From NCBI RefSeq assembly GCF_044324875.1, contig NZ_CP172185.1: a DNA stretch of 64,000 nt, one strand, 5' to 3'. This DNA comes from Escherichia coli (GTDB taxonomy: Bacteria > Pseudomonadota > Gammaproteobacteria > Enterobacterales > Enterobacteriaceae). The notes under the pieces were generated by a model. That model did no database searches, had not been told where the DNA came from, and saw nothing but the letters and a program-made list of their open reading frames with translations. Below are positions 1 through 39,137 of the stretch, piece after piece. Position 1 is the stretch's first letter, and the number at the start of each line of letters is the position of its first letter. The position numbers and the translations under genes were made by a program.

Positions 1-149
1 GGGTTATTGTGGAAATTCTGAAGAACGTATCTTTCGAATTCCTGCGCCTTTGATTTCAGGGTGAAAATCTTACGAATCCGCCTTCCTCCCGCCCCCTGAG
101 GCCTTACATCAACCTGATAACGTCCGTCTTTGAGTTGCTTAATCGACAT
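1..149 (-). CDS. int: P2-type tyrosine integrase, N-terminal ~49 codons only; gene continues beyond the window start
   Basis: Reverse-strand translation from ATG at 147-149 gives MSIKQLKDGRYQVDVRPQGAGGRRIRKIF..., matching the P2 Int N-terminus as I recall it (MAIKKLDDGRYEVDIRP...). Confidence 0.8.
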   Translation of the reverse strand, partial: MSIKQLKDGRYQVDVRPQGAGGRRIRKIFTLKSKAQEFERYVLQNFHNN

Positions 150-218
150 GATCAGCACCTCCGACGGATAAACCTGTTAACCCCTGCTTACTGAACGCCG
201 CCCGTTCAATATACAGCG

Positions 219-560
219 TCAGCCAGCATTGCGGCCTGATTGGGGTGATTTTTGGGTATTGCGGGTTGAAACCTGATCGTCCTCCGACTGCGTGGAGCCA
301 TCAAGAGAGAGAGCCGGGGCGATCTGACCGGCAACAGGTAGCGTCTTATCTTTGATTAGCCAGAACATATATTTTTCAAACCGATCCACTTGAAGGACGG
401 CCTCAACAATCTTTGCTCTGGCGATCTTTTGCCCTGACTCATAATTCCTGACAGTTGCCAGAGATAACCCTGTAATATCAGCAAATTGCTTTTGAGTTAG
501 CCCTTCCGTCTTGCGTATCAAACGCAACTTTTTCGCATAGTCTATTGACAAGATACTCAT
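219..560 (-). CDS. HTH (XRE-type) immunity repressor, in the position of P2 C
   Basis: 113 aa with a helix-turn-helix segment (QKQFADITGLSLATVRNYESGQ); sits between int and the divergent early operon. Confidence 0.75.
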   Translation of the reverse strand: MSILSIDYAKKLRLIRKTEGLTQKQFADITGLSLATVRNYESGQKIARAKIVEAVLQVDRFEKYMFWLIKDKTLPVAGQIAPALSLDGSTQSEDDQVSTRNTQKSPQSGRNAG

Positions 561-663
561 TTGGGGATTAATCTCCTACAAAAGATAACCGTACGATTAT
601 CTTTACAAGTCATCAAAAATCATCAAAAGGCGCAACAAGCGCACCAATGCAAGAGGATAACAA
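561..663. promoter_or_regulatory. Divergent promoter/operator region between repressor and early operon
   Basis: Palindrome AAAGATAA-N8-TTATCTTT at 581-604 and direct repeats ATCAAAA at 611-628, between divergent genes. Confidence 0.45.
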
Positions 664-1185
664 ATGCGGGAGATTATTGCCGACAAAGAGTTATCTGGCG
701 CTCAACCGGTTCAGGATGATGGCGCGGACAATGAATTCATTGAAGCTGCCAACGACAACGAACACCTGGAAACCAAAACCAGACCGTCCTACAAAAAGGG
801 CGCAACCCTACGACTGGACGGCCCAGTCGCAGGACTTGTGTCACTGGAAAAAGGGGCTGCCTATCTGGGGGTAACAAAATCTGCGCTACGCGCCGCCATT
901 CAGCGCGGGCAGATGCCGGGTCACAAAACGCGCTCAAATCCCGAAGATGAAAAGTCAGACGGTACATGGTGGTTTAACGCCAAAGCCTGGGACGAACTAG
1001 CCGACGAACTACTGGAGTGCGAACCGCCAGAGTGGCACAACTGGAAAAGCTACTGGACGTACGACCGCAAGAAAAGAAAGTTTTCACCGGCAAACAAGGA
1101 GGACTGCCAGACCGTTAAAGGTAAGCAGGTTTACTCCCCCAGAGTTTCAAAACTGGAGCAACTCAAAAACAACCAGCCCGGCTAA
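664..1185 (+). CDS. First early-operon protein with central HTH; Cox/Apl-like position but longer (173 aa)
   Basis: ORF with AGAGGA RBS; HTH-like segment LEKGAAYLGVTKSALRAAIQRG. Confidence 0.5.
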   Translation: MREIIADKELSGAQPVQDDGADNEFIEAANDNEHLETKTRPSYKKGATLRLDGPVAGLVSLEKGAAYLGVTKSALRAAIQRGQMPGHKTRSNPEDEKSDGTWWFNAKAWDELADELLECEPPEWHNWKSYWTYDRKKRKFSPANKEDCQTVKGKQVYSPRVSKLEQLKNNQPG

Positions 1186-1193
1186 ACACGAAA

Positions 1194-1400
1194 ATGACCA
1201 GCAATATCATCAATGCCGTTTTGAACATTATATTCCTGGAATTAGGCGTAGTAGTGATTTATCTGCTTGGCAAGCTAACAGGACAAAAAGAACGTTTTAT
1301 TGTCCTCAACGTTCATTACGTCGCAGCTTATTCTAAAGGGCTTTTTCCAATAGTTGTTGGCGCGGGACTTACAGCGTTTGTCATCTGGCTCATCAGGTAG
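1194..1400 (+). CDS. Small hydrophobic protein (68 aa)
   Basis: ORF with two hydrophobic stretches; no clear RBS. Confidence 0.3.
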   Translation: MTSNIINAVLNIIFLELGVVVIYLLGKLTGQKERFIVLNVHYVAAYSKGLFPIVVGAGLTAFVIWLIR

Positions 1401-1682
1401 AGGCACACAACGTAATCATTCGTAGCTATATTTCCGCAATAGTATTCAAGTAAAGGAAGACAACAACATGAAACCAAGACAAAGATTAACCTCCAGAAGT
1501 AGTGACGCATTGCACTTTAAAGCAAAAGACATAATAGCCACAACAAAGGTAGGAGCATAAGTCTATATACACTTTCAGAATTTCTATCTGGAGAGAACAT
1601 TAAAAACGGAAGAGGAAGCCAATGAGTATTTGTTATTCATGAAAGATTGCATAGAAGGAAAAATAAGCGCAGGAGATAAATA

Positions 1683-1991
1683 ATGCGAAAACATTATTCA
1701 CAGCCACATTTCCGCAACAGTGCACCACGCAGCAATAACCGCTGGAGCCTGCGCGAAACACACGCAACGCCGGGCGGTCATGCTGTAAAACAGACTGGTC
1801 AACACACCTGGCTGATTGAGCAGGCCGGACTCGTGATCCACAGATGCCACCGCAATCCGTTTACCGGAAACCGCATTTTTGCACTGAGCAGCGGCGACAA
1901 TCAGTTCGGACAGGATTTCACACTGCACGAAGCCTTGCGAACTGCCGACCGCTTAATCGAGGGGCGCAGCTTTCAGCATACCGACTACTAA
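1683..1991 (+). CDS. Hypothetical early phage protein
   Basis: 102-aa ORF, RBS GCAGGAG upstream, same strand as early operon. Confidence 0.45.
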   Translation: MRKHYSQPHFRNSAPRSNNRWSLRETHATPGGHAVKQTGQHTWLIEQAGLVIHRCHRNPFTGNRIFALSSGDNQFGQDFTLHEALRTADRLIEGRSFQHTDY

Positions 1992-2029
1992 GGCAAAAGG
2001 AGTCTTAATAAGACAGAAGAGGCAGCAAG

Positions 2030-2272
2030 ATGAAAAGAGCCTATAAAGAACTCATTAACGACGCGCTTCAGAATTACCATTACGGACTTACAAGCCGTGG
2101 CACTAACGGTGACGCTGTTTCACTTGCAGCACTGACTACAGCAATCAAGGGCCTGACCTGTTGCGCCTTTGGTTCCGGAGATAATGAAGCTCTGACGGAA
2201 TTACAGGCCATTAATAAAGACCTGTCTGAAGGAAACGTAATAACCCCCTTTGTAATTCAGGAGGAAGCATGA
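2030..2272 (+). CDS. Hypothetical early phage protein
   Basis: 80-aa ORF; stop overlaps next start (ATGA). Confidence 0.5.
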   Translation: MKRAYKELINDALQNYHYGLTSRGTNGDAVSLAALTTAIKGLTCCAFGSGDNEALTELQAINKDLSEGNVITPFVIQEEA

Positions 2273-2394
2273 GCGTATTTATGTCATGGTTAATTCTTAT
2301 CCTTGCCATTATTTGCGCTGTGGGGATTATGCGGGTAATTAACAGCATTAACACCATTGAATCGTTATTTACTGGCGATAAGCGCCGTAAATAA
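2269..2394 (+). CDS. Small membrane peptide (41 aa)
   Basis: GGAGG RBS 6 nt upstream; MSVFMSWLILILAIICAVGIM hydrophobic helix; start overlaps the previous stop. Confidence 0.4.
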   Translation: MSVFMSWLILILAIICAVGIMRVINSINTIESLFTGDKRRK

Positions 2395-2474
2395 ACAGGC
2401 GTTTAACACCAGAAACAACCAGAAACATCCGCTCACGCGGAGGGGTTGACCCGCTCAAAAAGGAGAAATCAGGA

Positions 2475-2768
2475 ATGCTTAATAATAAAAAAAACCGAAT
2501 CATTGATAACAGTGAACAGGTCAACAAAATAATCGAAGGCACAAACAAATTAATTAAGAAAAAAAACAAACTAAGCCGTGAATTAATGGAACATCCGGAA
2601 GAAATATTATTAGCCATGATGCACCAGACAGAAGCGATAGCCATCGCCCTTGCCGTGCAGGCGCTTTCTGAGTTCCGGGAAGAAAACATCAGGCTGGCTC
2701 AGGAGCTGAAAAACCTCAGACGTCAGCTTCAGAGCACTGAGGCTGGCACGTCATCACGAATACACTGA
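2475..2768 (+). CDS. Hypothetical protein, Lys-rich N-terminus
   Basis: 97-aa ORF with AAGGAG RBS; AT-rich patch. Confidence 0.5.
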   Translation: MLNNKKNRIIDNSEQVNKIIEGTNKLIKKKNKLSRELMEHPEEILLAMMHQTEAIAIALAVQALSEFREENIRLAQELKNLRRQLQSTEAGTSSRIH

Positions 2769-2778
2769 GGGCCACACC

Positions 2779-2988
2779 ATGACTGCAATTCTGAGAAGAC
2801 GCAATAAAACGCTTTTTACCGATACATCCGGGATGGAATACGAAGTGGAAAGCAGTGTCATCGCCACCACCACCCGATGCCCGGCAGGTGACGAACTGAT
2901 TTACGTCCACCTGACGGACGGGTCACAGATAACCGTCCTGACAGAGTCATGGCGCGAACTCGAGATAATAAGCGAGGTAAGAACATGA
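2779..2988 (+). CDS. Hypothetical early phage protein
   Basis: 69-aa ORF translationally coupled to the next gene (ATGA). Confidence 0.45.
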   Translation: MTAILRRRNKTLFTDTSGMEYEVESSVIATTTRCPAGDELIYVHLTDGSQITVLTESWRELEIISEVRT

Positions 2989-3197
2989 GCAGCAAACACG
3001 ATACCAACGCACGCAGACCAGGCAAAGAGGCGCGTCACCATATCGCCGTAATGCGCAACCTGCTTATGAGTGAAATCGACGATTTTGTGGCAGGCCTGGG
3101 GCAACCGGGCGAACCAGCAACACCAGGCCAGATACACAGGGAATTACGCCGCCGCGTGGAAAACGTCGTGGATTACGTCATAAACCCGAACGACTGA
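2985..3197 (+). CDS. Hypothetical early phage protein
   Basis: 70-aa ORF with GAGG RBS. Confidence 0.45.
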   Translation: MSSKHDTNARRPGKEARHHIAVMRNLLMSEIDDFVAGLGQPGEPATPGQIHRELRRRVENVVDYVINPND

Positions 3198-3236
3198 CGG
3201 GAACATGGCGAGCGTCAGATGACACACGCAGGGCAC

Positions 3237-3719
3237 TTATCGGGAAAAACCGATCGTAATGGCAGCCATCATCTTTTCAGCGAAAGAGAGAGATTCACGA
3301 TGACTGATATTCAGAGACATACAGGCTTTGTTGTACGCCACATTTTCCATGCATTCCAGGACAGGAGAGTCATGCATCTCAAGCTCTGGAAGGCGTGCCA
3401 GCAGAGCTTCCGTACTGAGGAGGGCGCTTTTGGTAATCAACTCATTGTAGCGATGGGCATGCTCACTCGCCGCCTGCGCACGTTGCCCGAAACGACATAT
3501 GAAATTACAGGCTCCGAGAACCACCACCACTGCCCCAAGCACCCAGCCGAAATGCCAGCCGGCTACGATGAACGCACCCGCCGCAAGGATCAAAATGTTG
3601 ATGATCGCATCAAGGCGACGATTGAATACCGCCGCGATGCGCTCCAGCCAGTAGCTGTACCAGAGACGGAACATGACCTCATCCCGTTCTCTCGATTTTT
3701 TACGTTGGTTGTTTTGCAT
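3237..3719 (-). CDS. Antisense-oriented two-TM membrane protein (160 aa); candidate moron
   Basis: Basic N-terminus (RKKSRER), two adjacent hydrophobic helices (IINILILAAGAFIVAGW / WVLGAVVVVLGACNFI), GAGGGA RBS; a competing plus-strand ORF 3219-3854 overlaps it. Confidence 0.4.
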   Translation of the reverse strand: MQNNQRKKSRERDEVMFRLWYSYWLERIAAVFNRRLDAIINILILAAGAFIVAGWHFGWVLGAVVVVLGACNFICRFGQRAQAASEHAHRYNELITKSALLSTEALLARLPELEMHDSPVLECMENVAYNKACMSLNISHRESLSFAEKMMAAITIGFSR

Positions 3720-3953
3720 GGTGTTTTATCCCTCATCGTCATCGCTCTGCCCCTAATCAGCGCAGAGTGCAGGGTAACCTGGCTCGTGGAATTTTTGCAG
3801 CCAGACATCTTTACCCCCGGGCGTGTTGAACAAAGTGTCCGCCAGATCCACTGAACGGCGGATTCATCAATGCTAACACGCCCTTCTTTTCCGGTTGAAG
3901 GCGAAAAAACCGGACCATTACCCCGACACAAAACAGAACAACGGAGAACAACT

Positions 3954-4508
3954 ATGCCCGCACTTAAACCTATGGGTGTATCAGGTGTACCACCGAAGCA
4001 TGTCAGAGCCTGGACACAACAGGAAGATGCTCTACTGGTCGGTTTATACCCCTCCCACACCGTACCAGAACTGACAAAACACTTTCAGAGAACCGGGCCA
4101 GCAATACGAAGCCGCATCCGTCTTTTGCTCTCTCAGGGGGTTATCCACACCAAACAACCCCCCCTGAATACAAAAGAACTCAACACGCTCATCAGGAATC
4201 GCCACACAAAAACCATCCGGGAACTCGCGAATGAACTGGGGCGCTCGACATCCACGGTGGGACTGAACCTGAGAAAAAGAGGGTACCGGTTCAGGAAATA
4301 CGGGGAACTCCACCACAGAGCCAGATACAGCGATCACCTGGTGGAGTTGGTAACTGAACTGCGCGATGAACAGGGGATGACATTCAGCGAAATCAGAAAG
4401 TACATCCGGGACATGGCCGGGATATCCCTTAAAAGATGGGTCCTCGCCCGGCTTTACGCACGATATACCGCCGCTGACACCGTGCTTTGCGAACTGCTAC
4501 CGGACTGA
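3954..4508 (+). CDS. DNA-binding protein with three tandem HTH-like repeats
   Basis: GGAGA RBS before ATG at 3954; three repeated helix-turn-helix-like segments. Confidence 0.55.
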   Translation: MPALKPMGVSGVPPKHVRAWTQQEDALLVGLYPSHTVPELTKHFQRTGPAIRSRIRLLLSQGVIHTKQPPLNTKELNTLIRNRHTKTIRELANELGRSTSTVGLNLRKRGYRFRKYGELHHRARYSDHLVELVTELRDEQGMTFSEIRKYIRDMAGISLKRWVLARLYARYTAADTVLCELLPD

Positions 4509-4828
4509 GTAACCACTATGCACACACAAAAAAACCGCTTGCCATGCCGCAATCAGTCAGGTTACATTTCCGCTGCACCTCATAAAACGGGTGCCGGGAT
4601 TGCAACCCCCGCTGACAACTACAGCGCACAACCGCGCCAGCGGTTTTTTTGTGCGTACCGTATCGCCACGTCTTTTTCGCGCCAGAATTATGGCGGGGCG
4701 TATGGGGCCGACTTCGGTCGGGCCGGTTTCTGTAGTTGCCGGTGGTTGCAACCCTGTACGTCTCGCCACCCAGAATTGCAACCTCTGGATGGTGAGTTTT
4801 CAAAACTTGCAACTACAGAGGCCACACC

Positions 4829-5053
4829 ATGGCAAACCGCAAACAACAGCGCGCATACGCTGCGCGTCGTCACATCCAGACTGAAATCAACCGCAGACTT
4901 TTCCGCGCATTCCGCGTCGCGCATATCATGCACATCAATATGCTGCATGAGCGCAGCCACGCACTGTCAAACATGTATTCCGCCGCTGTATTCAGCTACC
5001 TGGCGGATGACCTGCGCGAGCTGCAGGACCTCATTAACCAGCACCACCACTAA
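4829..5053 (+). CDS. Small hypothetical protein (74 aa)
   Basis: ORF immediately after a TTGCAAC repeat cluster; weak RBS. Confidence 0.3.
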   Translation: MANRKQQRAYAARRHIQTEINRRLFRAFRVAHIMHINMLHERSHALSNMYSAAVFSYLADDLRELQDLINQHHH

Positions 5054-5121
5054 TCAACATCCCGGAGCCATCCCGCCCCCGTACGCGGGAGGCTTCCGCA
5101 CGTCCGTTTCCGGAGGTTCTC

Positions 5122-5535
5122 ATGAAGAGCGTTAAGGGACTTTCAGATATTCAGGATTTTTTTAACTGGATGTGGGCGGTGGATCCACGCCTCGCTTCCC
5201 GTCTCAATGACCTGCACGACTATTACCGCCGCGCCTGTAAACAGGCAGCCCGCAGCGCTGCCACATACGGGGATTTTTCCTTCACCGTTGACGACCGTTA
5301 CCGCGTGGATGTCAGAGACCAGAACCACAGCCTGGAGCTGGGCCTGTTCCACATCAACGGGTGCGACAGCAGCGTTATCAGCTGGTCATCGTCAGAAATG
5401 GTGCTCGTTCTGGAAATGACCACCCACAGCGTGGTCGTGAAAGGGATTAAAACAGCAGAAGACTTTATCGCTGAATACCAGCGCCTTCTTGTGCTGTACC
5501 GGGCTGCATTTCAGAAGGCAACAGCAGGGGAGTAA
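5122..5535 (+). CDS. Hypothetical protein upstream of the replication gene
   Basis: 137-aa ORF with GGAGG RBS. Confidence 0.5.
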   Translation: MKSVKGLSDIQDFFNWMWAVDPRLASRLNDLHDYYRRACKQAARSAATYGDFSFTVDDRYRVDVRDQNHSLELGLFHINGCDSSVISWSSSEMVLVLEMTTHSVVVKGIKTAEDFIAEYQRLLVLYRAAFQKATAGE

Positions 5536-5540
5536 GCGGA

Positions 5541-8051
5541 ATGAGCCATCACCACACGCACCTGGCGTACCCGTGGAACGCCCCGCTGCCGGTTATTGAT
5601 CCTGAGACATTCGGCAGAGCATTACCGCAGAAGCCAACCGCATTACAACGGGCAATCCGTGACTACCTCACCGAAGACATTCGCACTGAGGCCCGGCTGG
5701 ATGAAGAAACCGTGGCCTTCCTGACAACCACGGACAAAGGTAAGCAAATTAATTCACACCTTCACCGGGACGAAGAGCGGCAGATAAGGCTGGATAAGCT
5801 GGCACGACACAGACGCGAAAATCCGCCAACGGCGGTATCGGAGGCGATAGCCGAACTTCGCACCCTGCCCTCGTTTCTTGCCAGTGTGTTGATCCGTGAT
5901 CTGGCACGACTGAACCGGAAACAGCAAAGTGCCCGCAGTGAAGGTGTAAAAAACAACAGCGCATACGTGGCCGATAATTTCGTTCGCCGTGGACTGCGTG
6001 CGCGCCTGAAACGTATTGAAAGGGTTAACGACCGCTTTGCAACGCCGGCATTCAAAACCACCGTCGTGCGCCATCGCCTTGAAGAACTGCTCACACTGCC
6101 GCAACTCACCCGTGACGAAATCCAGCGCATCGCCACACTGACAGCCCAGGCATTCGCCGCAGAATTTGAACGCATATGTGATGAAGTTCTTGAACGGACA
6201 GGCAAGGATAATGACAGCCCGGTTATCTGGCTGCTGGCCTACCAGAAGGTGGCACGCACAGCCTTAATTCTGGGCATGGTCCCGCCATACTGGCCGGAAC
6301 TCGAAATCAGGCACAACCGACGCACACCGCCGGACCCTGAACGGGTTCCGGGTGCGGTACTGCGCATCACCTGCGCGACCTGGTGGAACAACCAGTTACG
6401 CCACGTCGCCGATCTCTGGCGGGAGGAGTTACTGCGCGCCGCCGGCAGAGTGTCACGTAAACAATCCCCCTATATCAGCCATGAGTCACTACTGGAGTTC
6501 CGCGAGAAGCGCCAGCGCACCTGTGACTTTCTCAAAAGCTGGGATATTGAAAACGAAGACGGCGAGCGCCTGAGTCTGGAGGACGTGTACTGGGCTGGCC
6601 TGGGTAATCCACGCAACCGCCGCAATGAAATGATGGTCTGCGTCAGAGGGATGGAGATGGTGGCCGAATTACGGGCTGACGTCGCATTCTTCATCACAGT
6701 AACCACCCCTTCCCGCTTTCACAGCGTGAACGAGAACGGCAGCCTGAACCCGAAATACAACGGTGCCACAGTACGAGATGCCAGTGATTATCTGGTTTAC
6801 GACTTCTTCGCAGCCGTAAGAAAAAAAATAAAAAAAGAGGGGCTGGGCTGGTACGGCGTGCGAACCGCTGAGCCACACCATGACGGCACGCCACACTGGC
6901 ATATGCTGGTATTCACTTCCCCGGAGAACGCAGAGCGCATCATCGAAATTATGCGCGAAGCAGCAATTAAATCAGATCGCCACGAACTGGGGGACGATAT
7001 TTCACCGCGCTTTAAATGCGAGAAGATAGACCCGGAAAAAGGCACACCGGCAAGCTATATCGCAACCTATATCGGTAAGAACCTGGACGCCAGCGCTTTC
7101 CACAACAATGATCCGAAAACCGGAAAACCTTACGTTGATGAGGAATCCGGGAAAACCATGGCGGAAACCGTGGAGAACGCCATTGCCTGGGCAAGCCTTC
7201 ACCGCATCCGTCAGTTCCAGTTTTTCGGCATTCCGCCCCGCCAGGTATGGCGTGAACTCCGCCGCCTTGCAAGCCAGATGGAGCGCAACCCGGCATCACC
7301 GAAGCACCTCGATCATGACGATATTGACGCCATTATGGCTGCCGCAGATGTGGGATGTTTTGCCACCTACATCATGAAACAGGGTGGTGTGCTCATTCCG
7401 CGCAACCAGTATCTGGTCCGCACCGCATACGAAACCGCAGACGAAGCCAACGACTACGGTGAATTCCCTCAACGTATCTACGGAATCTGCGCCCCGTCGC
7501 TCGGAGAGCGGTACACCATATGCACCCATCCGGACGAGTGGAAACTGGTTAAAAAAGAAACAATACCAGACAACCGCACGGGCGAGGGTTTTGACCTTCA
7601 GGGCGACCCCGTCGCCCCTTGGACTCGTGGCAATAACTGTCCCCGGGATGAAAAAACAGACAATCACGGACCAGAAAACAGGCAGGACCCCGGACGACTG
7701 ACGCTTCCCGAAGAGAACCTGGAAAGCTGGCTGAATACGTTAAGCAGGGGCGATCGGAGAAAACTGCGTAATCAGATTAAAAATCAGCCGTCGGGCGCAA
7801 AAACCGGACAAAACGACACCACACCGGCATCTGACACCCCTGTAAGGGTGGGGATTGTCGTGCCTGCGGATACCGCGACGGACACGCAAATCGCCCGCGA
7901 ACTTGATGCGCTGGGTGTGCAGTTGCCTGACGCGGCCATCATCTCCGTGCGTAACGGTGCCCGTGTGCGTCTGGATAACGGGGGAACAGCGTACTGGGAT
8001 GAGTCAGCCCGTCACATCATCACAGAGCAGCCAGTGGAGGCGGGAGCATGA
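5541..8051 (+). CDS. A: P2 gpA-like rolling-circle replication initiator (HUH endonuclease)
   Basis: 836 aa; HxH motif context TPHWHMLVF; position and size match the P2 A family. Confidence 0.85.
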   Translation: MSHHHTHLAYPWNAPLPVIDPETFGRALPQKPTALQRAIRDYLTEDIRTEARLDEETVAFLTTTDKGKQINSHLHRDEERQIRLDKLARHRRENPPTAVSEAIAELRTLPSFLASVLIRDLARLNRKQQSARSEGVKNNSAYVADNFVRRGLRARLKRIERVNDRFATPAFKTTVVRHRLEELLTLPQLTRDEIQRIATLTAQAFAAEFERICDEVLERTGKDNDSPVIWLLAYQKVARTALILGMVPPYWPELEIRHNRRTPPDPERVPGAVLRITCATWWNNQLRHVADLWREELLRAAGRVSRKQSPYISHESLLEFREKRQRTCDFLKSWDIENEDGERLSLEDVYWAGLGNPRNRRNEMMVCVRGMEMVAELRADVAFFITVTTPSRFHSVNENGSLNPKYNGATVRDASDYLVYDFFAAVRKKIKKEGLGWYGVRTAEPHHDGTPHWHMLVFTSPENAERIIEIMREAAIKSDRHELGDDISPRFKCEKIDPEKGTPASYIATYIGKNLDASAFHNNDPKTGKPYVDEESGKTMAETVENAIAWASLHRIRQFQFFGIPPRQVWRELRRLASQMERNPASPKHLDHDDIDAIMAAADVGCFATYIMKQGGVLIPRNQYLVRTAYETADEANDYGEFPQRIYGICAPSLGERYTICTHPDEWKLVKKETIPDNRTGEGFDLQGDPVAPWTRGNNCPRDEKTDNHGPENRQDPGRLTLPEENLESWLNTLSRGDRRKLRNQIKNQPSGAKTGQNDTTPASDTPVRVGIVVPADTATDTQIARELDALGVQLPDAAIISVRNGARVRLDNGGTAYWDESARHIITEQPVEAGA

Positions 8052-8479
8052 CGCGATTTTGCTGCACCATGCAGCGCCCACAGTTTGAGGCCATCATGCG
8101 CCAGCGTATGCCGGTGCTGACACTGTTCAGGCCTGCCACAAGGCCACAACCGGGCGACGAGCTGGAAATCACGATAGTCAGCCCCGATCGCACCACGGAG
8201 ACCACCATCGCCGACATACTCAACAGGCGGCCGGGCAGCGAGAGCCATAGCTGGACTGTCGTCATTCGTCCGCGCCGTTCGCCGGAGGAACCGGAGCCGT
8301 GCACGCCTGCCGGGAAAATCATGCAGAGATATCACGAAGAGCGGACACGCAGGCACAACGGCGGACTGGCCAGAACACTGAACACAGTCAATCACAAGGC
8401 CGCGCTGGCGCGAATGGTCTTTTCACCACAACGCAATTCATTCGCCAGACCAGCACAGAACGGGAGGAAACAACAGTGA
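8048..8479 (+). CDS. Hypothetical cargo protein, first gene of the accessory operon
   Basis: 143-aa ORF, start overlaps A stop (ATGA), GGAGG RBS. Confidence 0.5.
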   Translation: MTRFCCTMQRPQFEAIMRQRMPVLTLFRPATRPQPGDELEITIVSPDRTTETTIADILNRRPGSESHSWTVVIRPRRSPEEPEPCTPAGKIMQRYHEERTRRHNGGLARTLNTVNHKAALARMVFSPQRNSFARPAQNGRKQQ

Positions 8480-8670
8480 GCAGAATATTACTTTTTCTGC
8501 TGTTTTTCGCGCCATTCGCACAATCAGCCACGCCGAACTGCGTAGCGAAAAAGAGCAACACCGTTGTCATTGTCCAGTGTGATGACGGCACGGTAACAAT
8601 CACCGACTCGAGCAAAGGAAGCGTCATTGTCTGCCGTAAAGAGAAACCCTGTCAGCGAACCGAACTTTGA
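8476..8670 (+). CDS. Small secreted Cys-containing protein (64 aa, GTG start)
   Basis: GGGAGG RBS; signal-peptide-like N-terminus ILLFLLFFAPFAQSA; four Cys in the mature part. Confidence 0.45.
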   Translation: MSRILLFLLFFAPFAQSATPNCVAKKSNTVVIVQCDDGTVTITDSSKGSVIVCRKEKPCQRTEL

Positions 8671-8681
8671 AGGAAAAATAT

Positions 8682-8761
8682 ATGAACAGGAAACAGAAGC
8701 AGGAACTGAAAGGCTTCTTACGTAAAGAAATTGCCAGGCTGGAAGATGTGGAATCTCAGTC
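8682..8761 (+). pseudogene. 5' part of a cargo gene split by the IS insertion
   Basis: AAGGA RBS and ATG at 8682; reading frame runs into the IS end at 8762. Confidence 0.6.
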
Positions 8762-8860
8762 TGCGTATTCCGCTCTATTCGATCACGGATTGGCATCGAA
8801 GTCCGATCAGCGATTCGCATCCATTCGATCAACCGGGAACTTAACTTTTTCTACCGCTTT

Positions 8861-9616
8861 TTAACGCGTTTTTTCGCTGCTTTCCACTACCGGGGGATTT
8901 TTCCTCAGTGACTCTCCCTGAAGGACCACTCGGTGTGAGTTATGTACCAGTCTGTCCAGGATGGCATCTGCTGTTGTTGGGTTCTCCATCAGACCATGCC
9001 ATTTATCTACCGGGAACTGGCTTACCACTATCGTGCTGCTTTGTCCGTAACGATCCTCTATGAGCTCCAGAAGGTCATTACACTGGGCGTTACTTAACTG
9101 TTCCAGCCCCAGATCGTCCAGGATTAGAACCTGTATTTTTTGCAACTGTTTCAGATATTTCAGCCAGCTGCCATCAACACGTCCCTGAGCCAGTTGTTCC
9201 AGTAATCGCCCGGTTCTACAGTACCGGACGCTGTGTTTCTGTCGACATGCCTGTTCGCCCAGCGCATTGGCTATCCAGCTCTTGCCACATCCTGTCGGAC
9301 CGGTTATCAGCAGGTTTTTCCTGTGGGTTATGTAGTGGCCGTTCAGCAGTTCTCTCATCTGTTCAGCCCGCAGACCTCTTGAGGCCGGATAGCGCAGCCC
9401 TTCCGGTGTTGCCTGGTATTTCAGGCCGGCATTTTTTCTCAACCGTGCCACACGGCTGTTTTCCCTGCTCAGAAGCTCGTCATCAACCAGCAGCGTCAGC
9501 CTTTCCTCGAACGACAGTTCGTCGTAGGTCTGAGGCGTTTCCCGCTGCCGTATCAGGCTCCCGGCCATCGCCGGGAGTTTCAGTTGGGTCAGTTTGTTTA
9601 ACAGGTTATCACTCAT
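8861..9616 (-). CDS. istB: IS21-family helper ATPase IstB
   Basis: Walker A GPTGCGKS; start taken at MSDNLLNKL. Confidence 0.85.
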   Translation of the reverse strand: MSDNLLNKLTQLKLPAMAGSLIRQRETPQTYDELSFEERLTLLVDDELLSRENSRVARLRKNAGLKYQATPEGLRYPASRGLRAEQMRELLNGHYITHRKNLLITGPTGCGKSWIANALGEQACRQKHSVRYCRTGRLLEQLAQGRVDGSWLKYLKQLQKIQVLILDDLGLEQLSNAQCNDLLELIEDRYGQSSTIVVSQFPVDKWHGLMENPTTADAILDRLVHNSHRVVLQGESLRKNPPVVESSEKTR

Positions 9617-9632
9617 ACTGTTGTTCCTTCTG

Positions 9633-11168
9633 TCAGTGGTAGTAGCCCGGACCACGCAGGTTTTCATGCTCTGAAGCATATGCCGGATGTTGTTCGCCCT
9701 GGCGGGATAATGGAAGCTCCAGGTTCTCCCGATGGTGACGCAGCAGATTGTCGATAAAGCGTCTGTCAGGGGCGTTATAGTGCAGGGCAACGTAACAGGC
9801 CTTTTCCAGCCGTTCCGGGCCGTATTTTTTCTGAAGTGCCAGCAGCCCCAGAACTGCACGATAAGCCAGTTCCGGATGGGGTTTTGCCTTCAGCATGGAT
9901 TCAACCACCCGGCCTGTGGACGGGCCCGTACGTTTTCCCTGCTCGATCAGGCGTTCCGGTGTCCATGTCCCGTGCTGCCGGTGGCGCTCTGGCATGTGAA
10001 GCGGATTGGTTGTGTGTTTATATTCATGTGTGCTGCGCGGATGTTGCGCCACACACTGCCCCTTGTGCCAGAGCTGTACCACCGACTGCCCCGCCTTCAG
10101 TGACAGACGCTGACCGACCAGTTCGTGTGGAACGGAGTACCAGTGACGGGCATATTCAACGTGGTAGTCAGGGCCAACCTTCACAGCTTTGTATTCCGTG
10201 TATTCATAAGGTGCCAGAGGCAGCGGAGAGAGTGCTGGCGCATCCAGTATGCGGAAGCGTTCTGCACGGGTTTGATTGCCGTACCCCTTCATTGGCCGGT
10301 TATTCATGTCTGTCAGTAACTCCCTAAGGCGCGCATTCAGCGCCCTGAGCGTGTGGAAGGTTTCATTACGGATGCGGGCAAGAAGCCATCGTTCAACGAT
10401 GAGGACGCCGTTTTCTGCTTTTGGTTTATCTTTAGGTTTGCGTGGTCGGGCCGGGATGATAACCGTGCCATAGTGCTCAGCCAGTGCCTGATAACTGTCG
10501 TTGATGACAGGCTCATATCGATCGGCCTTTTTCACTGCGCTTCTGAGGTTATCGGGGATGAGCAGCTTCGGTACGCCGCCCAGGAAGGTCAGGCAACGGC
10601 TGTGGGCATTTAACCATGACATCATGTCCTGACCTTCGCACGCTTCAACGTAGGTATAGTTGGACGCCCCCATTACGGCCACGAAGATTGCCACGCGGCG
10701 TATCTCACCGGTGTCCGGATTAATAACAGGAACCGTAGGACCACAGAAGTCGATAAAAAGCTTTTCGCCGGCACGATGCTCCTGGCGCATGGAGAGACGT
10801 CGCGTTTTTTTCCACTCCCGGTAGCAACGGCAGAAGTGCGAGTATCCCATCGCTTTGTTACCCGCCTGTGCCTTGTATTCCATCCACAACAGTTGCCGCG
10901 TCACACCTGGTTTTCTCATTTCCGTATCGAAGTACAACATGTCAGGCATTACAAGCTCTGATGCAAAGGTGTCTTTGGGCGGAAAAATGAGTTTCTCCAG
11001 CGTGTCATGGGATATATCAGCAGGTAATGGCCATGACAGAGAAGAGGCTTTGAAGCGGGCAAGAACCTCAAAAACGGTTGAGGCGCTGATGTGTAACGTC
11101 AGTCCGATACAACGGTTAGTCAGCTTCTTGTCGAACTTGAGCTGAAGGATCTTAAAACAGGTTTCCAT
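9633..11168 (-). CDS. istA: IS21-family transposase IstA
   Basis: ~512 aa from METCFKILQ; N-terminal HTH and integrase-like catalytic core typical of IstA. Confidence 0.85.
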   Translation of the reverse strand: METCFKILQLKFDKKLTNRCIGLTLHISASTVFEVLARFKASSLSWPLPADISHDTLEKLIFPPKDTFASELVMPDMLYFDTEMRKPGVTRQLLWMEYKAQAGNKAMGYSHFCRCYREWKKTRRLSMRQEHRAGEKLFIDFCGPTVPVINPDTGEIRRVAIFVAVMGASNYTYVEACEGQDMMSWLNAHSRCLTFLGGVPKLLIPDNLRSAVKKADRYEPVINDSYQALAEHYGTVIIPARPRKPKDKPKAENGVLIVERWLLARIRNETFHTLRALNARLRELLTDMNNRPMKGYGNQTRAERFRILDAPALSPLPLAPYEYTEYKAVKVGPDYHVEYARHWYSVPHELVGQRLSLKAGQSVVQLWHKGQCVAQHPRSTHEYKHTTNPLHMPERHRQHGTWTPERLIEQGKRTGPSTGRVVESMLKAKPHPELAYRAVLGLLALQKKYGPERLEKACYVALHYNAPDRRFIDNLLRHHRENLELPLSRQGEQHPAYASEHENLRGPGYYH

Positions 11169-11400
11169 AGTGCTCCTGGATTTTCTCTTTCTGGACATTG
11201 ACGTCTCCACTGGTTTAAACACGGCAATGGAGACTGTGGTGAAAAGAGTTAATTCCCGGAGTGACTGGCAGGATGCCAATCAATGATCGGAAGCATGCCA
11301 AATCGTGATCGATTGTGATGCCAAACTGTGATCGGAGATGGATGCCAAATCATGATCGATTCGAATGCCAAACTGCGATCGATTCAGATGCCATTTTGCA

Positions 11401-11641
11401 TCAGTCATCAGATATTCCATTCGGAATGGATATCAACGACGCCTGTATGCTCCAGGTATACCGCATAGCTCAGGCTGCACTACAGGCAAAACCGTCAGAT
11501 GGACTGGTTAGAGCAGTACGTTTCTATGAACTGGTAAAGCGTGAGAATCCGCCAGTCGAAACCGGAGCATGGCAAGACGCTGTTGACTGGGTGCTCAAAG
11601 AGGCTTGTCAGGTTGTAAACACTGGCATCAAAGGAGACTGA
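11401..11641 (+). pseudogene. 3' part of the cargo gene split by the IS insertion
   Basis: Removing the IS and one TSD copy joins 8682-8761 in frame to this segment, giving a 104-aa ORF. Confidence 0.6.
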
Positions 11642-11642
11642 T

Positions 11643-11852
11643 ATGGCTATTGCCGCAAGTTACACCATGCATCTCTATTGTGATTGTCGCCAGTGTACAA
11701 ATGGTAAATATCAAACGCCAGACTTCGGTGAATATATCGGTACGTCATGGACTGGCTGTGCAAAAGAGGCGCGTAAGGATGGCTGGCGAATAAGCAAAGA
11801 CAAAACTCGTGCTTTTGCGCCCGGGCATAAAGTTTTGAGGATTAACAAATGA
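11643..11852 (+). CDS. Small Cys-rich protein (69 aa), possible zinc ribbon
   Basis: AAGGAG RBS; CDC-x2-C ... C pattern; tightly packed in the operon. Confidence 0.5.
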   Translation: MAIAASYTMHLYCDCRQCTNGKYQTPDFGEYIGTSWTGCAKEARKDGWRISKDKTRAFAPGHKVLRINK

Positions 11853-12250
11853 CCACTATAACCAAAGAGCGACTACTGACAATCAGGCAGTGGCGCGAAA
11901 CATACGGACCTGGTAGCAACGTTGTACTGCCAGCCGAAGAAGCGGAAAAACTGGCACGGATTGCTTTGGCATCGCTGGAAGCAAAACCAATAGGTGCTTT
12001 CCACATTGCAGAACAGCAGGTCGATGGCACAAGTGACTACATCAAGGATGGGGAGTACCGCTTGCTGACATCTGAAGAACAAAAGATAGCCCAACTTTTA
12101 GGCGATGCATGGAACCTGTATTTTACATTGCCAGTTGAGCATCCAATGGGTAGAGATGAATTTTGCCGGGCAATTCATCATTGCCAAAATATGGTGTTGG
12201 CACGCCCTGCCATCAGGGCGCTGGCCAGTAAGGGGCAAGGCTATAAATAG
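11849..12250 (+). CDS. Hypothetical cargo protein (133 aa)
   Basis: Start overlaps the previous stop (ATGA); followed by a strong terminator. Confidence 0.5.
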   Translation: MTTITKERLLTIRQWRETYGPGSNVVLPAEEAEKLARIALASLEAKPIGAFHIAEQQVDGTSDYIKDGEYRLLTSEEQKIAQLLGDAWNLYFTLPVEHPMGRDEFCRAIHHCQNMVLARPAIRALASKGQGYK

Positions 12251-12256
12251 ATGAGC

Positions 12257-12285
12257 AAAACGCCCTCCTCCAGGGCGTTTATTTC
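12257..12285 (+). terminator. Rho-independent terminator closing the cargo operon
   Basis: Hairpin AACGCCCTCCTCCAGGGCGTT followed by a T-rich run. Confidence 0.6.
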
Positions 12286-12741
12286 AATGCACAATAGTGC
12301 ACAAATTTGCACAATTTTTTTGAACGACTTTTTGCCCTTCCGGCCCGTGTGGCGTCTGGATCCGTCGGGGATCCGTGCGTGCACGAAAAAAGGCCTTTTT
12401 CTGCGCGCAGGTGACGGGGGAACAGCCCGCGTTTCAGGGGGTAAATAGCATTCCCTGAACGATGTTGCAGTGACACAACAGAATGGCTGTATTTCTCACG
12501 CTGAGCGTGAAAAAGACGTAAGGGCTTTTGATTTGATGGGGTGAAAGATAAGGCCGTCAAAATCGCACTGAGGCAGCGAGAATATGTCGTCAGAGTTGCG
12601 GGGTTGCGTAAGCATCCGCCCGGCGATGATGGCTACAGGGCTGGAGATGTTGTGAAATTATCTGAAGGAATAACCAGCTTGCAGGAGAACCCGGGCAAAG
12701 TCAGAATAGCGGCAGGCATCAACTCAAAAGAGGATAATGTC

Positions 12742-13245
12742 ATGAGCCACTTTAATGATTTATGCCAGATCAATCGTGAAGCTGAAGAAAAACGCGCTGA
12801 GGCAGCTCAAATTTTGCGGGATGAAGCGGCAAGGCTGATTGATTTCTATGAAGAATGGCTGGGGCTTCCATCCATGTACTGGGAAGACGATGATGGCGAC
12901 CTGCACCGCTACGTGGAGACAGGCTTGCCATGTAAGACAGCGGCGGATTTTAGTCCTCTTTCAGTCCACAATATCGCATCTGCACCAGACAATATTTTCC
13001 GCATGGCCGTGCGAACCTGGGTTAAGTCATCTGACAGCAGCTACCCGGTAAGCGTGGTTATTGCACTTGAATTATATTCAGTAGATGCGGAACGGGTGTC
13101 TCTGAGAGTCCGGGTGGAAGACGATATTTCTGTTCGCGTATTTATCAATAAACCCAGCGAAGAAGCCTGGGGCGATGTTGTTATGCACATGAAAAAGCAC
13201 ATCGCTAATCACCTGAAAAAGCGAGCGCCATCAGCACTTCGTTAA
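12742..13245 (+). CDS. Hypothetical acidic protein (167 aa) next to the portal gene
   Basis: AGAGGA RBS before ATG at 12742; an upstream in-frame GTG at 12541 is an alternative start. Confidence 0.45.
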   Translation: MSHFNDLCQINREAEEKRAEAAQILRDEAARLIDFYEEWLGLPSMYWEDDDGDLHRYVETGLPCKTAADFSPLSVHNIASAPDNIFRMAVRTWVKSSDSSYPVSVVIALELYSVDAERVSLRVRVEDDISVRVFINKPSEEAWGDVVMHMKKHIANHLKKRAPSALR

Positions 13246-13311
13246 GCAGAGCTGGAGAGTCGGGGCATAAATTTTTTATGCCCCGGCGAAGCAGCAGACA
13301 AGCGAAGCGCG

Positions 13312-14367
13312 TCAGGATATGGGCTGGGTGTCTAACAGTGCGTAAGGGTTAAAACGGATCACCTCTTCGCCCAGCCAGTCGTTGACGTGTTTCATTGCTT
13401 CCATGACGGGCATCAGTTCGTTAATGGCAAACACACGGGCTGCCTTCTCCACATCCCCGAATGACCCCTTCTCACCCGGCATGGCCCCCATCAGCTGCGG
13501 CGGTACACGGTGCACGGACAGCACATCATCACGCGATGCAGCCTTGACGTTCATGAACTCATCCTTTGCGGTGATTTGCTGAAACGGCAAAATCTGTACG
13601 CCATCCTTACCACCTCCCGCCGCGTGGATGAGCAGATTTTTAAACGCCCCGCCACCACGCGCGCTTTGCAGTGTTTCCCGCAGTTTTTCCATGCTTTCAC
13701 GGTCAACCTGCGCCGCACCGATGTAGACAATACAGCCCGCGTGTGAGCCGTTATCGTAGTAGAGCTTGCGGAAGATATCGGCGGAATGTGACAGGCTGGC
13801 AGACAGCAGGCCGCCCAGGTAATCCGGCATCCCGTAAATCTCCTGGTTGATATCAGGATTCATCAGGTGGCATATCGTCCCCTCACGAAAGCGGTACTCT
13901 TCCTGTCCTTCCTGTATATACCACCATGATTTCATATCGCTGCCACGTCGCATGTATTTCGCCAGCGCCCGGCGCAGGGCCAGCGGTTCGCCAAGCATGT
14001 TGCGCCGCAGCTCAAGACAGGCATTACCGAACACAAACCAGTCCATCGCCACCCCGGCGAACTCCTGGCGGGACAGCAGAGGATGTGGAATATAGCAGCC
14101 CAGCAGCACATTACGTTTGAAGCTGAGCGCCGACTGGTGCCAGGACGTCTGGCGGGCAGCCCGTGCCAGTCCGTACCAGTCAACGGGCGTTTCAAACCAC
14201 CGCCCGTTGTCGGCGCAGTACATGCTGTCCAGCAGGTCGGCCCCTGACAGCCGGTAAGGTCCTTCAAACGTGAAGGCACTCAGTGTCGGGTCGCTTCGCA
14301 GGGAATCCGCAAGGCTGCCCTGCGCTGCGCGGGCGTTCGTACGTCGTTGTTTATTTTTTCTGCTCAT
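13312..14367 (-). CDS. Q: Portal protein, P2 gpQ-like
   Basis: 351 aa, adjacent to and co-oriented with the large terminase, as in P2. Confidence 0.85.
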   Translation of the reverse strand: MSRKNKQRRTNARAAQGSLADSLRSDPTLSAFTFEGPYRLSGADLLDSMYCADNGRWFETPVDWYGLARAARQTSWHQSALSFKRNVLLGCYIPHPLLSRQEFAGVAMDWFVFGNACLELRRNMLGEPLALRRALAKYMRRGSDMKSWWYIQEGQEEYRFREGTICHLMNPDINQEIYGMPDYLGGLLSASLSHSADIFRKLYYDNGSHAGCIVYIGAAQVDRESMEKLRETLQSARGGGAFKNLLIHAAGGGKDGVQILPFQQITAKDEFMNVKAASRDDVLSVHRVPPQLMGAMPGEKGSFGDVEKAARVFAINELMPVMEAMKHVNDWLGEEVIRFNPYALLDTQPIS

Positions 14368-16118
14368 CAGAACTCCGTAACACTGAAGGGGGCGGCATCA
14401 TGTTCACCGCCGACAGGTTCGTTGATAACGGCCAGCATGGTGGCCCATGCAAGATCGCCATGGCTTACGCCTCTTGCGCGATCTGTTTCGTAGGTGATAA
14501 ATCCGGCCTGCGTTTTTGTTTTGCGTACCGCGTTAAAGGCGCTCACCAGTTCGCGCTCGCTGCGGTCGTACTCCCACCGCCCGGCGCGCATGAGCTGCAG
14601 CATCTTCAGAACCAGCGTGCGCTTTGATGACAGGGTGAAGGTGTAGGGAATGGCTGCCGGAAAAAAGCGCTTCACAATCTGATACACCGCATCCCCGTGA
14701 CCGCCGGTTACGTCAATACCGATATGCTCAACGTTATAGCGAAAGGTGAACTCTTCAATCACCTTCGCCTGCGCCTCAAACTCCAGCCCCTGCACCCGCC
14801 GCGTCTCCACGGTGCGAAAACGCCCGCCCGGTACGGCTGGCGGCACCACCACGACAACCGCCCCGCTGTCACCGTTCCCGCTACTGCCGTTGGCGTCGTA
14901 CCCAATCCACACAGGGCGGTTCCCCATCGGACGCGGTGCAAACGGCTTCCAGTCCGGCCACTCGTCGTATCCGTCAACACCGCAGCCAATCAGGATATTC
15001 AGGTTAAATGCCGATTCCCCTTCGCGAGCAAATTCACACATGTAGAGATTGCGGAACTCGTCTTCAGTGTTATTGCGCCGGATTTTGTCAATGTTGGTTA
15101 ACGTCCATCCCTGACTGACCACATCTTCCAGCGTCACAATTTGCCGCCAGATATAGTCAGGACAGATAAGGCCGTTATGAAGCGCATTCCAGCTCACATC
15201 AAAATGCTGACGTTTATGAGTACGAAGCCCTTCATTCCAGTGATCGCCGTTCCAGTATGCATACGCCTCATGTGTTTCACTTGATGGCGTGGAAAAATAG
15301 GTACACCGCAAACCATCCAGCGTTGCCATAGCAGCAGCCACCTTGCGCAGCTCTGCGAAACGCCCCGTCCAGAAAAACTCATCAAAATACAGATTCCCTG
15401 TGTACGCTTGCGCGGTGGCCGCAGAAGTGCCGAGAAAATGCAGCTCTGCACCGTTGGAGAGGATGACTTTATCGCCCCCTTTCAGTTCCACATCAACTTC
15501 AGATGCAGCCTTCTGAATAATGCTTTTAAACTGGAGCGCCTGACGACGAGACGCAGACAAAAAAATCTGGTTACGCTGGTAAGGTTGTGCCACATCGTCA
15601 CGCAGCGCCATCAGCAGCGCTTCCTGCGCAAAATACCAGGTCGCCCCAATCTGGCGGGATTTCAGGATCATCCTGTCAGTAATTCCGGCACGCTCACAGG
15701 CACCGATAGCATCAAGCCATTTGCGCTGGTGTCCGGCCAGCCTGTCGGTAATTTTTTCCCGCAGCGCCGCGATCTGTTCCGGCGTGAAATGATTTTTGCG
15801 TTTTTTCGCCCGGCCTTTCTTTCCTGTTGCCGTCTCATCCGGCAGACCGTCATGCAGCTTTTTAAGCTGACGGGTCAGCAAATCAATTTCCTTAAAGTCC
15901 CCGCCTGTTTTATTCTGTTTTTCCGTGAGCTGAATGAGTCGCGCATCCATGGACTGCGTGACACGCTGAACCGGGGGCGTCTCATCCCACTGGTCGCGTT
16001 TTTTCCACGAATGGATCGTGTTCTGGTTGATACCCATAAGGCGGGAAATTTCCGCAACAGGGTAACCCTGCCAGTACAGCTGGCGTGCCCGCTGGCGAAC
16101 AAATGTATCCTGAATCAT
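14367..16118 (-). CDS. P: Terminase large subunit (ATPase), P2 gpP-like
   Basis: 583 aa; divergent from the scaffold gene as in P2. Confidence 0.85.
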   Translation of the reverse strand: MIQDTFVRQRARQLYWQGYPVAEISRLMGINQNTIHSWKKRDQWDETPPVQRVTQSMDARLIQLTEKQNKTGGDFKEIDLLTRQLKKLHDGLPDETATGKKGRAKKRKNHFTPEQIAALREKITDRLAGHQRKWLDAIGACERAGITDRMILKSRQIGATWYFAQEALLMALRDDVAQPYQRNQIFLSASRRQALQFKSIIQKAASEVDVELKGGDKVILSNGAELHFLGTSAATAQAYTGNLYFDEFFWTGRFAELRKVAAAMATLDGLRCTYFSTPSSETHEAYAYWNGDHWNEGLRTHKRQHFDVSWNALHNGLICPDYIWRQIVTLEDVVSQGWTLTNIDKIRRNNTEDEFRNLYMCEFAREGESAFNLNILIGCGVDGYDEWPDWKPFAPRPMGNRPVWIGYDANGSSGNGDSGAVVVVVPPAVPGGRFRTVETRRVQGLEFEAQAKVIEEFTFRYNVEHIGIDVTGGHGDAVYQIVKRFFPAAIPYTFTLSSKRTLVLKMLQLMRAGRWEYDRSERELVSAFNAVRKTKTQAGFITYETDRARGVSHGDLAWATMLAVINEPVGGEHDAAPFSVTEF

Positions 16119-33831: not shown

Positions 33832-33992
33832 ATGTTTCACCCTTGTCTGGCTGGTTGATTTTGCGTAATCATTACCCACACACGCGGTAATCTCACCCCT
33901 TTGATGTTGTCTCCTGACAGCGACAACAAAACAGCCATTCAACGCCGCTGCGGTGCATGAAACCATTACAGAACGCACCAGGAGAGAACACC

Positions 33993-35084
33993 ATGAAAGA
34001 GCTGTCAGTTACCGTTCCGTCACCGGATATCGACATCACCATCAACAACAACACACTGGCAAACCTCACAGAGCGACTCATGACGCTGACCCTGACGGAT
34101 AACCGGGCCTTTGAGGCAGACCGCGTCACCCTCACCCTTGACGATACGGACGGGCAGTTACAGTTGCCACCACGTGGCGCACGCCTGAGAGTGATGATTG
34201 GCTGGCGAGGAGAATCACTGGTTAACAAGGGCACCTACGTCGTTGATGAGGTTGCGTGGGAAGGACCTCCAGATAAACTGATCATCACCGCCAGCAGCGC
34301 AGATTTTCGGGAAGAGTTCAACGTGAGGCGGGAGGTATCCTGGCACGACGTGACCGTAAAACAGGTTGTGTCAGCCATCGCTCACCGCTACGGCCTGAAG
34401 ACACAGATAAGCGAAATCCTCATGGATATCGAAATTGACCACGCTGACCAGACCGAAGAGAGCGATATATCCTTCCTGACCCGCATGGCTGAAATGCTGG
34501 GTGCGATTGCCACCGTAAAAAACGGCAGCCTGTTATTCATTCTGCCGGGTGGCGGAACCGGGCCGGACGGAAAAGCCCTGCCTTCGTTCGCCATTACCCG
34601 CAGCAGCGGCGACAGTCACCGCTTTCGCATTGCTGACCGTGATGCGTATACGGGGGTCCGGGCGCACTGGCTCGATCTGAAGTTCGGGCACAAGAAAAAA
34701 GTGAACGTGAAGCGACGCAGGGAAGCCGGGAAACAGAAACAGGAGAAGAGCAGCAGCCGGGAGGGTGATTACATGGAAGGCGCGGAAGGGAACGTCTACG
34801 TTCTGCGCAGGACTTACCAGAATGAAGAAACCGCACGACGTGCAGCTGCGGCAAAGTGGCAGGAGTTACAGCGGGGAGCAGCGGCATTCTCCATCACTCT
34901 GGCACGGGGTCGTGCCGACCTGTATCCCGAAATGCACGGCAGGGTAACAGGTTTTAAAAGCGAGGTGGACAATCAGGACTGGATTATTGCCAGGGTGGAG
35001 CACATCATAGATGAAAGCGGCTTCACCACACAACTGGAGCTGGAAGCGAAAATCCCCGAATGGATAGCAGATTCAGGCGGATAA
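33993..35084 (+). CDS. D: Tail protein, P2 gpD-like (late control D family)
   Basis: GGAGAG RBS before ATG at 33993; ~363 aa; followed by ogr as in P2. Confidence 0.75.
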   Translation: MKELSVTVPSPDIDITINNNTLANLTERLMTLTLTDNRAFEADRVTLTLDDTDGQLQLPPRGARLRVMIGWRGESLVNKGTYVVDEVAWEGPPDKLIITASSADFREEFNVRREVSWHDVTVKQVVSAIAHRYGLKTQISEILMDIEIDHADQTEESDISFLTRMAEMLGAIATVKNGSLLFILPGGGTGPDGKALPSFAITRSSGDSHRFRIADRDAYTGVRAHWLDLKFGHKKKVNVKRRREAGKQKQEKSSSREGDYMEGAEGNVYVLRRTYQNEETARRAAAAKWQELQRGAAAFSITLARGRADLYPEMHGRVTGFKSEVDNQDWIIARVEHIIDESGFTTQLELEAKIPEWIADSGG

Positions 35085-35127
35085 AATTAAAATGAGCCAT
35101 CTCCACTCAGCCAGATAAGGAGAAGCC

Positions 35128-35379
35128 ATGTTCCGTTGTCCCCTATGCGGTGCATCCGCACGTATCCGCACCAGTCGCAATGAAAATGATTCAGGCACAG
35201 TTCGCCTGAAGTACTACCAGTGCAATAACCTCGAATGCGGGATCGGCTTTACCACACTGGAGGGTTTTAACAAATTCACATCAAAACGCGCCCCGTCGCC
35301 GCAGGGTACAGAGCGGATACCGTGGGAAGATTTTCCGGGATCTCACAGGGGGAATGCTCAGATGAATCTTGATATTTAA
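35128..35379 (+). CDS. ogr: Ogr/Delta-family zinc-finger late-gene activator
   Basis: MFRCPLCGASARIRTSR...YYQCNNLECG resembles the recalled P2 Ogr MFHCPLC...HQCQNVNC. Confidence 0.8.
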   Translation: MFRCPLCGASARIRTSRNENDSGTVRLKYYQCNNLECGIGFTTLEGFNKFTSKRAPSPQGTERIPWEDFPGSHRGNAQMNLDI

Positions 35380-35521
35380 GAACAATAATCAGGTTGAGAG
35401 GACATCATAAGGCAAGTAGATTAACGGCAGATACTTTCCCGCAACCACGGGCAAGTATTTAATTATCCATGATGAAATATGACCTAAATTGTTTTTTGCC
35501 CGCCGGAAAGCGGGCATTTTT

Positions 35522-36189: not shown

Positions 36190-36315
36190 ATGCATCAGAC
36201 AAGATACAGCCCACCCCAACTGACACCTGAAATATTGCCGCAACAAAAAGAAACAGTTAAATTACGCGCGGGTGCCTTTCGGCTGATGGCCGGAGGGAAA
36301 ACCTGAAGGCCGGAT

Positions 36316-39117: not shown

Positions 39118-39137
39118 AGATTCAGAAAAATTGGGTA

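Follow-up and report, generated by a model that had tools for sequence, protein, structure and literature searches.

The IS21 prototype, carried by plasmid R68.45, is about 2.1 kb in length and encodes an IstA protein of about 390 aa. The way in which elements of this family transpose is well established: IstA binds repeats in the element, IstB captures the target, and strand transfer is staggered. In phage P2, the non-essential genes tin and old occupy the position that corresponds to the locus described below. ISSso4 is an element of Shigella sonnei listed in ISfinder (bioRxiv 10.64898/2026.03.18.712784). Here, we analyzed a stretch of 64,000 nucleotides of Escherichia coli DNA (hereafter, the window), the first ~35 kb of which constitute a P2-like prophage (Peduoviridae, P88-like). 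The best explanation of the locus is the recent and simple transposition of an intact IS21-family element into a 315-nt gene of this prophage in an E. coli-type chromosome, to which we assign a probability of roughly 0.96; no observation spoke against it. In mechanism the event is ordinary, and events of this kind are already known: it is the insertion of a known and abundant insertion sequence (IS) into a prophage accessory gene.

The element is complete and occupies positions 8762–11400 of the window, with the direction from istA to istB following the minus strand. It is 2,639 bp long, and identical copies are found on plasmids. The termini are TG...CA, with TGCGTATT... at 8762 and ...TTTTGCA at 11400, and the terminal inverted repeats are imperfect, with arms that are 70–89% complementary, as is characteristic of the IS21 family. 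The two genes expected of this family, consecutive and both intact, were also present. The istA gene (9633–11168, minus strand) encodes a DDE transposase of 511 aa with an HTH, an rve and a Mu-transposase-C-like domain; the rve integrase core and a Mu-transpos_C_2 domain were found in Pfam. The istB gene (8861–9616, minus strand) follows the istA stop codon after a gap of 16 nt and encodes an AAA+ helper ATPase of 251 aa with the Walker A motif GPTGCGKS and the Walker B motif LILDD. IstA scored 284.7 bits against the NCBIfam IS21 transposase model NF033546 (cut-off, 160) and IstB scored 257.8 bits against the helper ATPase model NF038214 (cut-off, 200). These scores and the domain content of IstA support the assignment to the IS21 family that had been proposed in an earlier reading made from the sequence only (the sequence-only reading). 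IstA shows no difference from the allele annotated as WP_045147483.1, and IstB is identical to WP_001282653.1, which is named “IS21-like element ISSso4 family helper ATPase IstB.” The element resembles the IS21 prototype and family in its istA–istB operon, its DDE transposase and AAA+ helper, its TG...CA termini, its subterminal repeats and its short target duplication, but it is longer than the prototype (2,639 bp, with an IstA of 511 aa), has six repeats in its istA-proximal end and generated a duplication of 6 bp.

Multiple repeats are present in both ends of the element, which is a further characteristic of the family. The istB-proximal end (IRR; 8762–8851) contains about three repeats of ~23 bp followed by a CCGGGAACTTAAC box, and the istA-proximal end (IRL; 11241–11400) contains six tandem repeats of ~23 bp, beginning at IS positions 7, 30, 53, 77, 100, and 122, and a mirrored GTTAATTCCCGG box; both counts include degenerate copies at the tips of the element. 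The repeats have the form TTGGCAT-N5-7-CGATCA, and a mirrored CCGGGAAYTTAAC box closes both ends. When the whole window was searched with the motif TT[GC]GCAT-N4-8-GATC, six occurrences were found, every one of them within the two IS ends (8790 and 8814 on the plus strand; 11371, 11348, 11324, and 11301 on the minus strand). Since the motif lies on the plus strand at one end and on the minus strand at the other, the two ends are mutually inverted, which is the clustered and inverted arrangement that had been noticed from the sequence only. By analogy with the family, the ~23-bp repeats are presumed to be the binding sites of IstA.

The element is flanked by the hexamer TCAGTC, as previously noted, with a left copy at 8756–8761 and a right copy at 11401–11406; empty sites contain a single copy. 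This direct repeat is perfect, and its 6 bp fall within the range of 4–8 bp for target duplications of the family. It can be neither extended nor shifted, because C at 8755 faces A at 11400 and T at 8762 faces A at 11407. A flank match of 6 bp taken by itself has a chance probability of ~1/4096. Other copies of the element were compared together with their flanks (n = 11). All 11 copies were 2,639 bp long and had the same 20 terminal bases on either side; the duplication was 6 bp in nine of them, 5 bp in one and absent from one, the last of which probably arose when two copies recombined. Because the 11 copies share the same ends and length, 8762 and 11400 are the true ends of the element and 6 bp is its characteristic duplication; the boundaries given by the sequence-only reading were thus upheld, and the ends map to no other positions. 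A target-site preference for CAGT/CAG, considered on the basis of the first four sites, was rejected as uninterpretable, because the copies had been ranked by how closely their flanks resembled those in the window; the later copies with TAATAT, CTCAAC, and GTCTGC do not fit such a preference.

The element is widespread. It matched 506 plasmid records, of which 339 were at least 99% identical and several were 100% identical over all 2,639 bases. Most of the plasmid copies were from E. coli, and the fully identical ones resided on plasmids of E. coli and of E. fergusonii; NCBI labels these copies “IS21 family transposase” and gives their IstB the ISSso4-family name quoted above. Among complete E. 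coli genomes (n = 5,426), some had as many as 24 matching places, and near-identical copies occupied many distinct insertion sites. No full copy was found among 50,697 deposited phage genomes. Compared with ISSso4-group elements of Escherichia and Shigella, the element is alike in IstB, in its full length of 2,639 bp, in its termini and in its 6-bp duplications. As judged on the NCBI-named copies, there was no detectable difference, and only the insertion site was new among the 5,426 complete genomes. The element thus appears to belong to the ISSso4 group, an assignment that rests on the NCBI PGAP name of the identical IstB and indicates group membership only.

The sequence-only reading had also proposed that the element splits a single gene. 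The 5′ fragment of this gene (8682–8761, plus strand) comprises codons 1–26 and two further nucleotides, which are the first 80 nt of the WP_001080487.1 coding sequence (CDS), and the 3′ fragment (11407–11641, plus strand) runs from the rest of codon 27 to the stop. Joining the two gives 315 nt, that is, 104 aa and a stop codon. The restored peptide is exactly the 104-aa sequence that had been quoted for an in-frame join, but the right-hand join lies at 11407 and not, as then stated, at 11401. A join at 11401 retains both copies of the repeat and yields 106 aa with a duplicated “QS”; this correction does not affect the main conclusion.

An empty site was reconstructed as 1,000 bp (500 bp from each side, with one TCAGTC) and compared with IS-free prophages. 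Twelve complete E. coli genomes contained a full-length match at 100.0% identity, and 22 contained a match of at least 99%. The 12 perfect matches are the decisive argument against a chance repeat. In those genomes the restored open reading frame (ORF) is annotated as one CDS, WP_001080487.1 (104 aa); the CDS of strain SCU-115 is identical to it in both DNA and protein, and the same 104-aa protein is encoded by no fewer than 11 genomes besides SCU-115. Positions 1–4500 of the SCU-115 locus align to positions 4265–8761 of the window and positions 4495–9000 align to 11401–15907, so that the two alignment blocks share exactly the six bases of the target, where the IS-free prophage is continuous. 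Uninterrupted homologues with about 92–93% nucleotide identity were found in the free phages PhiR44_2 (XSB42705.1, 104 aa) and P88 (gp20, YP_009113063.1, 112 aa), in each of which the gene is again located between the replication gene on its upstream side and the portal gene on its downstream side. Neither a stop codon nor a gene boundary was seen at TCAGTC in any of the 22 near-identical sites or the two phages, and no IS-free homologue had the two fragments in separate genes. The occupied site was found in none of the 5,426 complete E. coli genomes. Taken together, the perfect duplication, the difference of only 0–5 nt between this element and other copies, the identity of the flanks to empty sites and the lack of the occupied site elsewhere indicate, at the level of sequence comparison, a recent and strain-specific insertion.

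The surrounding prophage has the gene content and order of P2. A repressor-type regulator (219–560) and a gpA-type replication endonuclease (5541–8051; PHROG 91) are followed by a divergent portal and terminase (Q/P) module, consisting of the portal (13312–14367; PHROG 68) and the large terminase (14367–16118), and by a gpD-type tail protein (33957–35084); PHROG 5751 and PHROG 52 were also matched. The prophage is collinear with Xuanwuvirus P88 and with PhiR44_2, and its integrase and left att site lie beyond the window. The insertion site is located among small ORFs, in a variable region bounded by the replication endonuclease gene and the portal gene, and from this position the label “cargo gene,” which had been given to the interrupted gene, is reasonable. 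Immediately upstream of the homologues in P88 and PhiR44_2 are parM, partition and ClpX-zinc-finger genes, whereas here a PHROG 14984 gene and a 64-aa ORF are found. We also considered whether the element had struck a known defence system in a P2 hotspot. This was unsupported, as PADLOC gave no match for the restored protein or for the neighbouring small ORFs (8048–8670 and 11643–13245).

The restored protein matched PHROG 660, a family of phage proteins of unknown function, over residues 1–103 (E value, 1.7e-27) and PHROG 26213, likewise of unknown function, over residues 47–104 (E value, 2.3e-28). It had no match in Pfam, NCBIfam, the PADLOC defence models or PDB sequences, and PGAP calls it hypothetical. 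An N-terminal helical or coiled-coil segment is predicted.

Three other explanations of the locus were weighed against transposition into a single gene. Many E. coli carry several copies of the IS, up to 24 places in one genome, and the occupied site is seen in no other complete genome; both facts would fit a copy misplaced into the prophage during assembly, with an undisturbed gene in the actual genome. We regard this as very improbable, because an error of assembly would leave no second copy of the target hexamer at a site that other genomes show as contiguous, whereas the duplication here is perfect and of the length typical for this IS (nine of the 11 other copies), and both junctions fall exactly at the TG and CA termini. 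Even less credible is the idea that the flanks are separate small genes with the IS lying between them, so that the in-frame join is a coincidence. When the number of base pairs removed is a multiple of 3, a preserved frame is reasonably likely, and the restored protein belongs to no Pfam or NCBIfam family. Against this stand the identical and uninterrupted 315-nt CDSs annotated in E. coli genomes, the single CDSs of P88 and PhiR44_2, and the alignment of PHROG 660 across almost the whole protein, which also bear out the earlier claim that one gene had been split.

Tandem dimers are known reactive intermediates of IS21-family elements, and the copy in the window could in principle be one arm of a tandem (IS21)2, or of a larger composite transposon, that carries phage DNA. 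However, no second copy and no composite structure were found in the 64-kb window, where each terminus occurs once even when three mismatches are allowed, and both flanks are collinear with the IS-free prophage; the chance that such a structure accounts for the locus is accordingly minute.

Under the favoured reading, that of simple transposition, the steps can be outlined by analogy with the family. The DDE transposase IstA would bind the ~23-bp repeats at both ends and cleave at the terminal CA-3′, and the AAA+ ATPase IstB would assemble on the target DNA and deliver it. Strand transfer would be staggered by 6 bp, and gap repair would produce the TCAGTC duplication. The sequence itself shows that the 104-aa phage protein is split after codon 26. 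As the IS is antisense to the rightward row of phage genes, polarity on 11643–13245 is conceivable, and a lower expression of these downstream small ORFs is possible, although speculative. Scans for consensus promoters and terminators gave counts near those expected from shuffled sequence, with no informative promoters or terminators among them.

Another comparison concerned Ea22 of phage lambda, a pro-lysogenic early protein encoded in the exo-xis region (PMC7093339, PMC10834534) and composed of a short N-terminal domain, a coiled coil and a CTD (PMC10834534). The last ~144 nt of the restored gene are 83–93% identical to the 3′ ends of Ea22 or ead/Ea22-like genes of lambdoid and Stx phages, and the part shared by the proteins is the C-terminal ~48 aa, or the C-terminal third of the restored protein. 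The restored protein is much shorter than Ea22-like proteins (104 aa against 254 aa in PhiR57_1), and its gene sits in a P2-like phage rather than in a lambdoid exo-xis region. A search against PDB chains, including the lambda Ea22 CTD, returned no sequence match at E ≤ 1. Membership in the ead/Ea22-like family was therefore rejected: the similarity is confined to the ~48 C-terminal residues, no NCBIfam, Pfam or PDB match was obtained, and a protein with no detectable similarity to the solved lambda Ea22 domain was not placed in that family. The restored protein is described as sharing a C-terminal module with lambdoid Ea22-like proteins, and not as one of them.

Two more far-reaching outcomes were also considered, namely that the IS inactivates an Ea22-related early accessory gene and dampens the genes downstream, or that a viable prophage packages the IS; we consider it unlikely that either of them applies. 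If the inactivation and dampening were real, the lysis–lysogeny behaviour of the prophage could change measurably. If packaging occurred, a temperate P2-like phage would be a vehicle for the horizontal spread of an ISSso4-group element.

For simple transposition into the prophage gene, the consequences lie mainly in annotation. The short ORFs on either side of the IS belong to a single gene, of which each is one half, and an IS-disrupted pseudogene is the appropriate annotation for the pair. The locus also provides one more example of an IS in the variable region where a P2-like prophage has its accessory genes, and, as a recent and strain-specific insertion, it could be used as a marker in strain typing. 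In the occupied state, the 5′ fragment reads into the IS and forms a 60-aa chimera (8682–8864) with a stop at 8864, and the 3′ part has no start of its own and is promoterless. Separately, an ORF beginning with GTG at 11315, within the IS end, enters the 3′ fragment in frame and has a predicted length of 108 aa.

The phage gene split by the IS (8682–8761 and 11407–11641; the IS is the IS21-family element of the ISSso4 group) is preceded immediately by a plus-strand ORF of 64 aa (8476–8670), which matched PHROG 20764 and PHROG 11462, both entries with no assigned function. The N-terminus of this ORF is hydrophobic (ILLFLLFFAPFAQSA) and looks like a signal peptide, and several cysteines are present in the product, possibly a small phage protein that is secreted or periplasmic. 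A plus-strand ORF of 133 aa is located at 11849–12250. Residues 1–76 of this ORF matched PHROG 60, 3323, and 660, and its N-terminal module belongs to the same family as that of the interrupted gene, while residues 72–133 matched PHROG 13916, labelled "DNA ligase." The ORF looks like a chimera. Its counterpart in E. coli SCU-115, a strain carrying the same prophage site without the IS, was annotated by PGAP as a truncated pseudogene.

Another copy of the IS, in the chromosome of E. coli HCM-22C-2 (NZ_AP038228.1, 151–2803 of the extracted locus), splits a different gene, annotated as "ead/Ea22-like family protein," with a 5-bp target duplication (ATCAC). This match was ranked high for the similarity of its flanks to those of the window, so the coincidence of an IS copy in a gene with this annotation may be a selection effect. 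A full-length copy in the chromosome of E. coli VTB97074v (NZ_CP178675.1) lacked a target duplication (flanks, GATAGC and GTACAG). Ten places in the VTB97074v genome matched the IS. Recombination between copies of the IS, with a resulting rearrangement or deletion beside a truncated VasL gene, could account for these features.

In the P2-like prophage, the early region contained gathering-level Rfam matches, both on the plus strand, to the Hfq-binding RNA isrK (4575–4650; 60.1 bits) and to C4 antisense RNA (4686–4773; 80.1 bits). The pair is located a short distance 3′ of a D5-like regulator ORF of 212 aa (3870–4508), an arrangement that suggests a putative P1/P7-type c4 antisense immunity module in this prophage. 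The prophage integrase and attL are apparently outside the window, on its left side. The gpD-like tail gene is separated from the next large ORF by approximately 4 kb (35085–39137) in which no ORFs of at least 150 aa were found, and the right prophage end, with an ogr-like gene and attR, is presumably located within this interval.

Farther downstream, tRNA-Ser(GGA) (53809–53896), an RtT RNA element (53940–54074), and a single orphan CRISPR-DR4 repeat of 28 nt (54176–54203, minus strand) adjoin a minus-strand ORF of 763 aa (54417–56708). In E. coli, a degenerate CRISPR remnant is located near serW/clpA, and the region at 53809–54203 resembles it.
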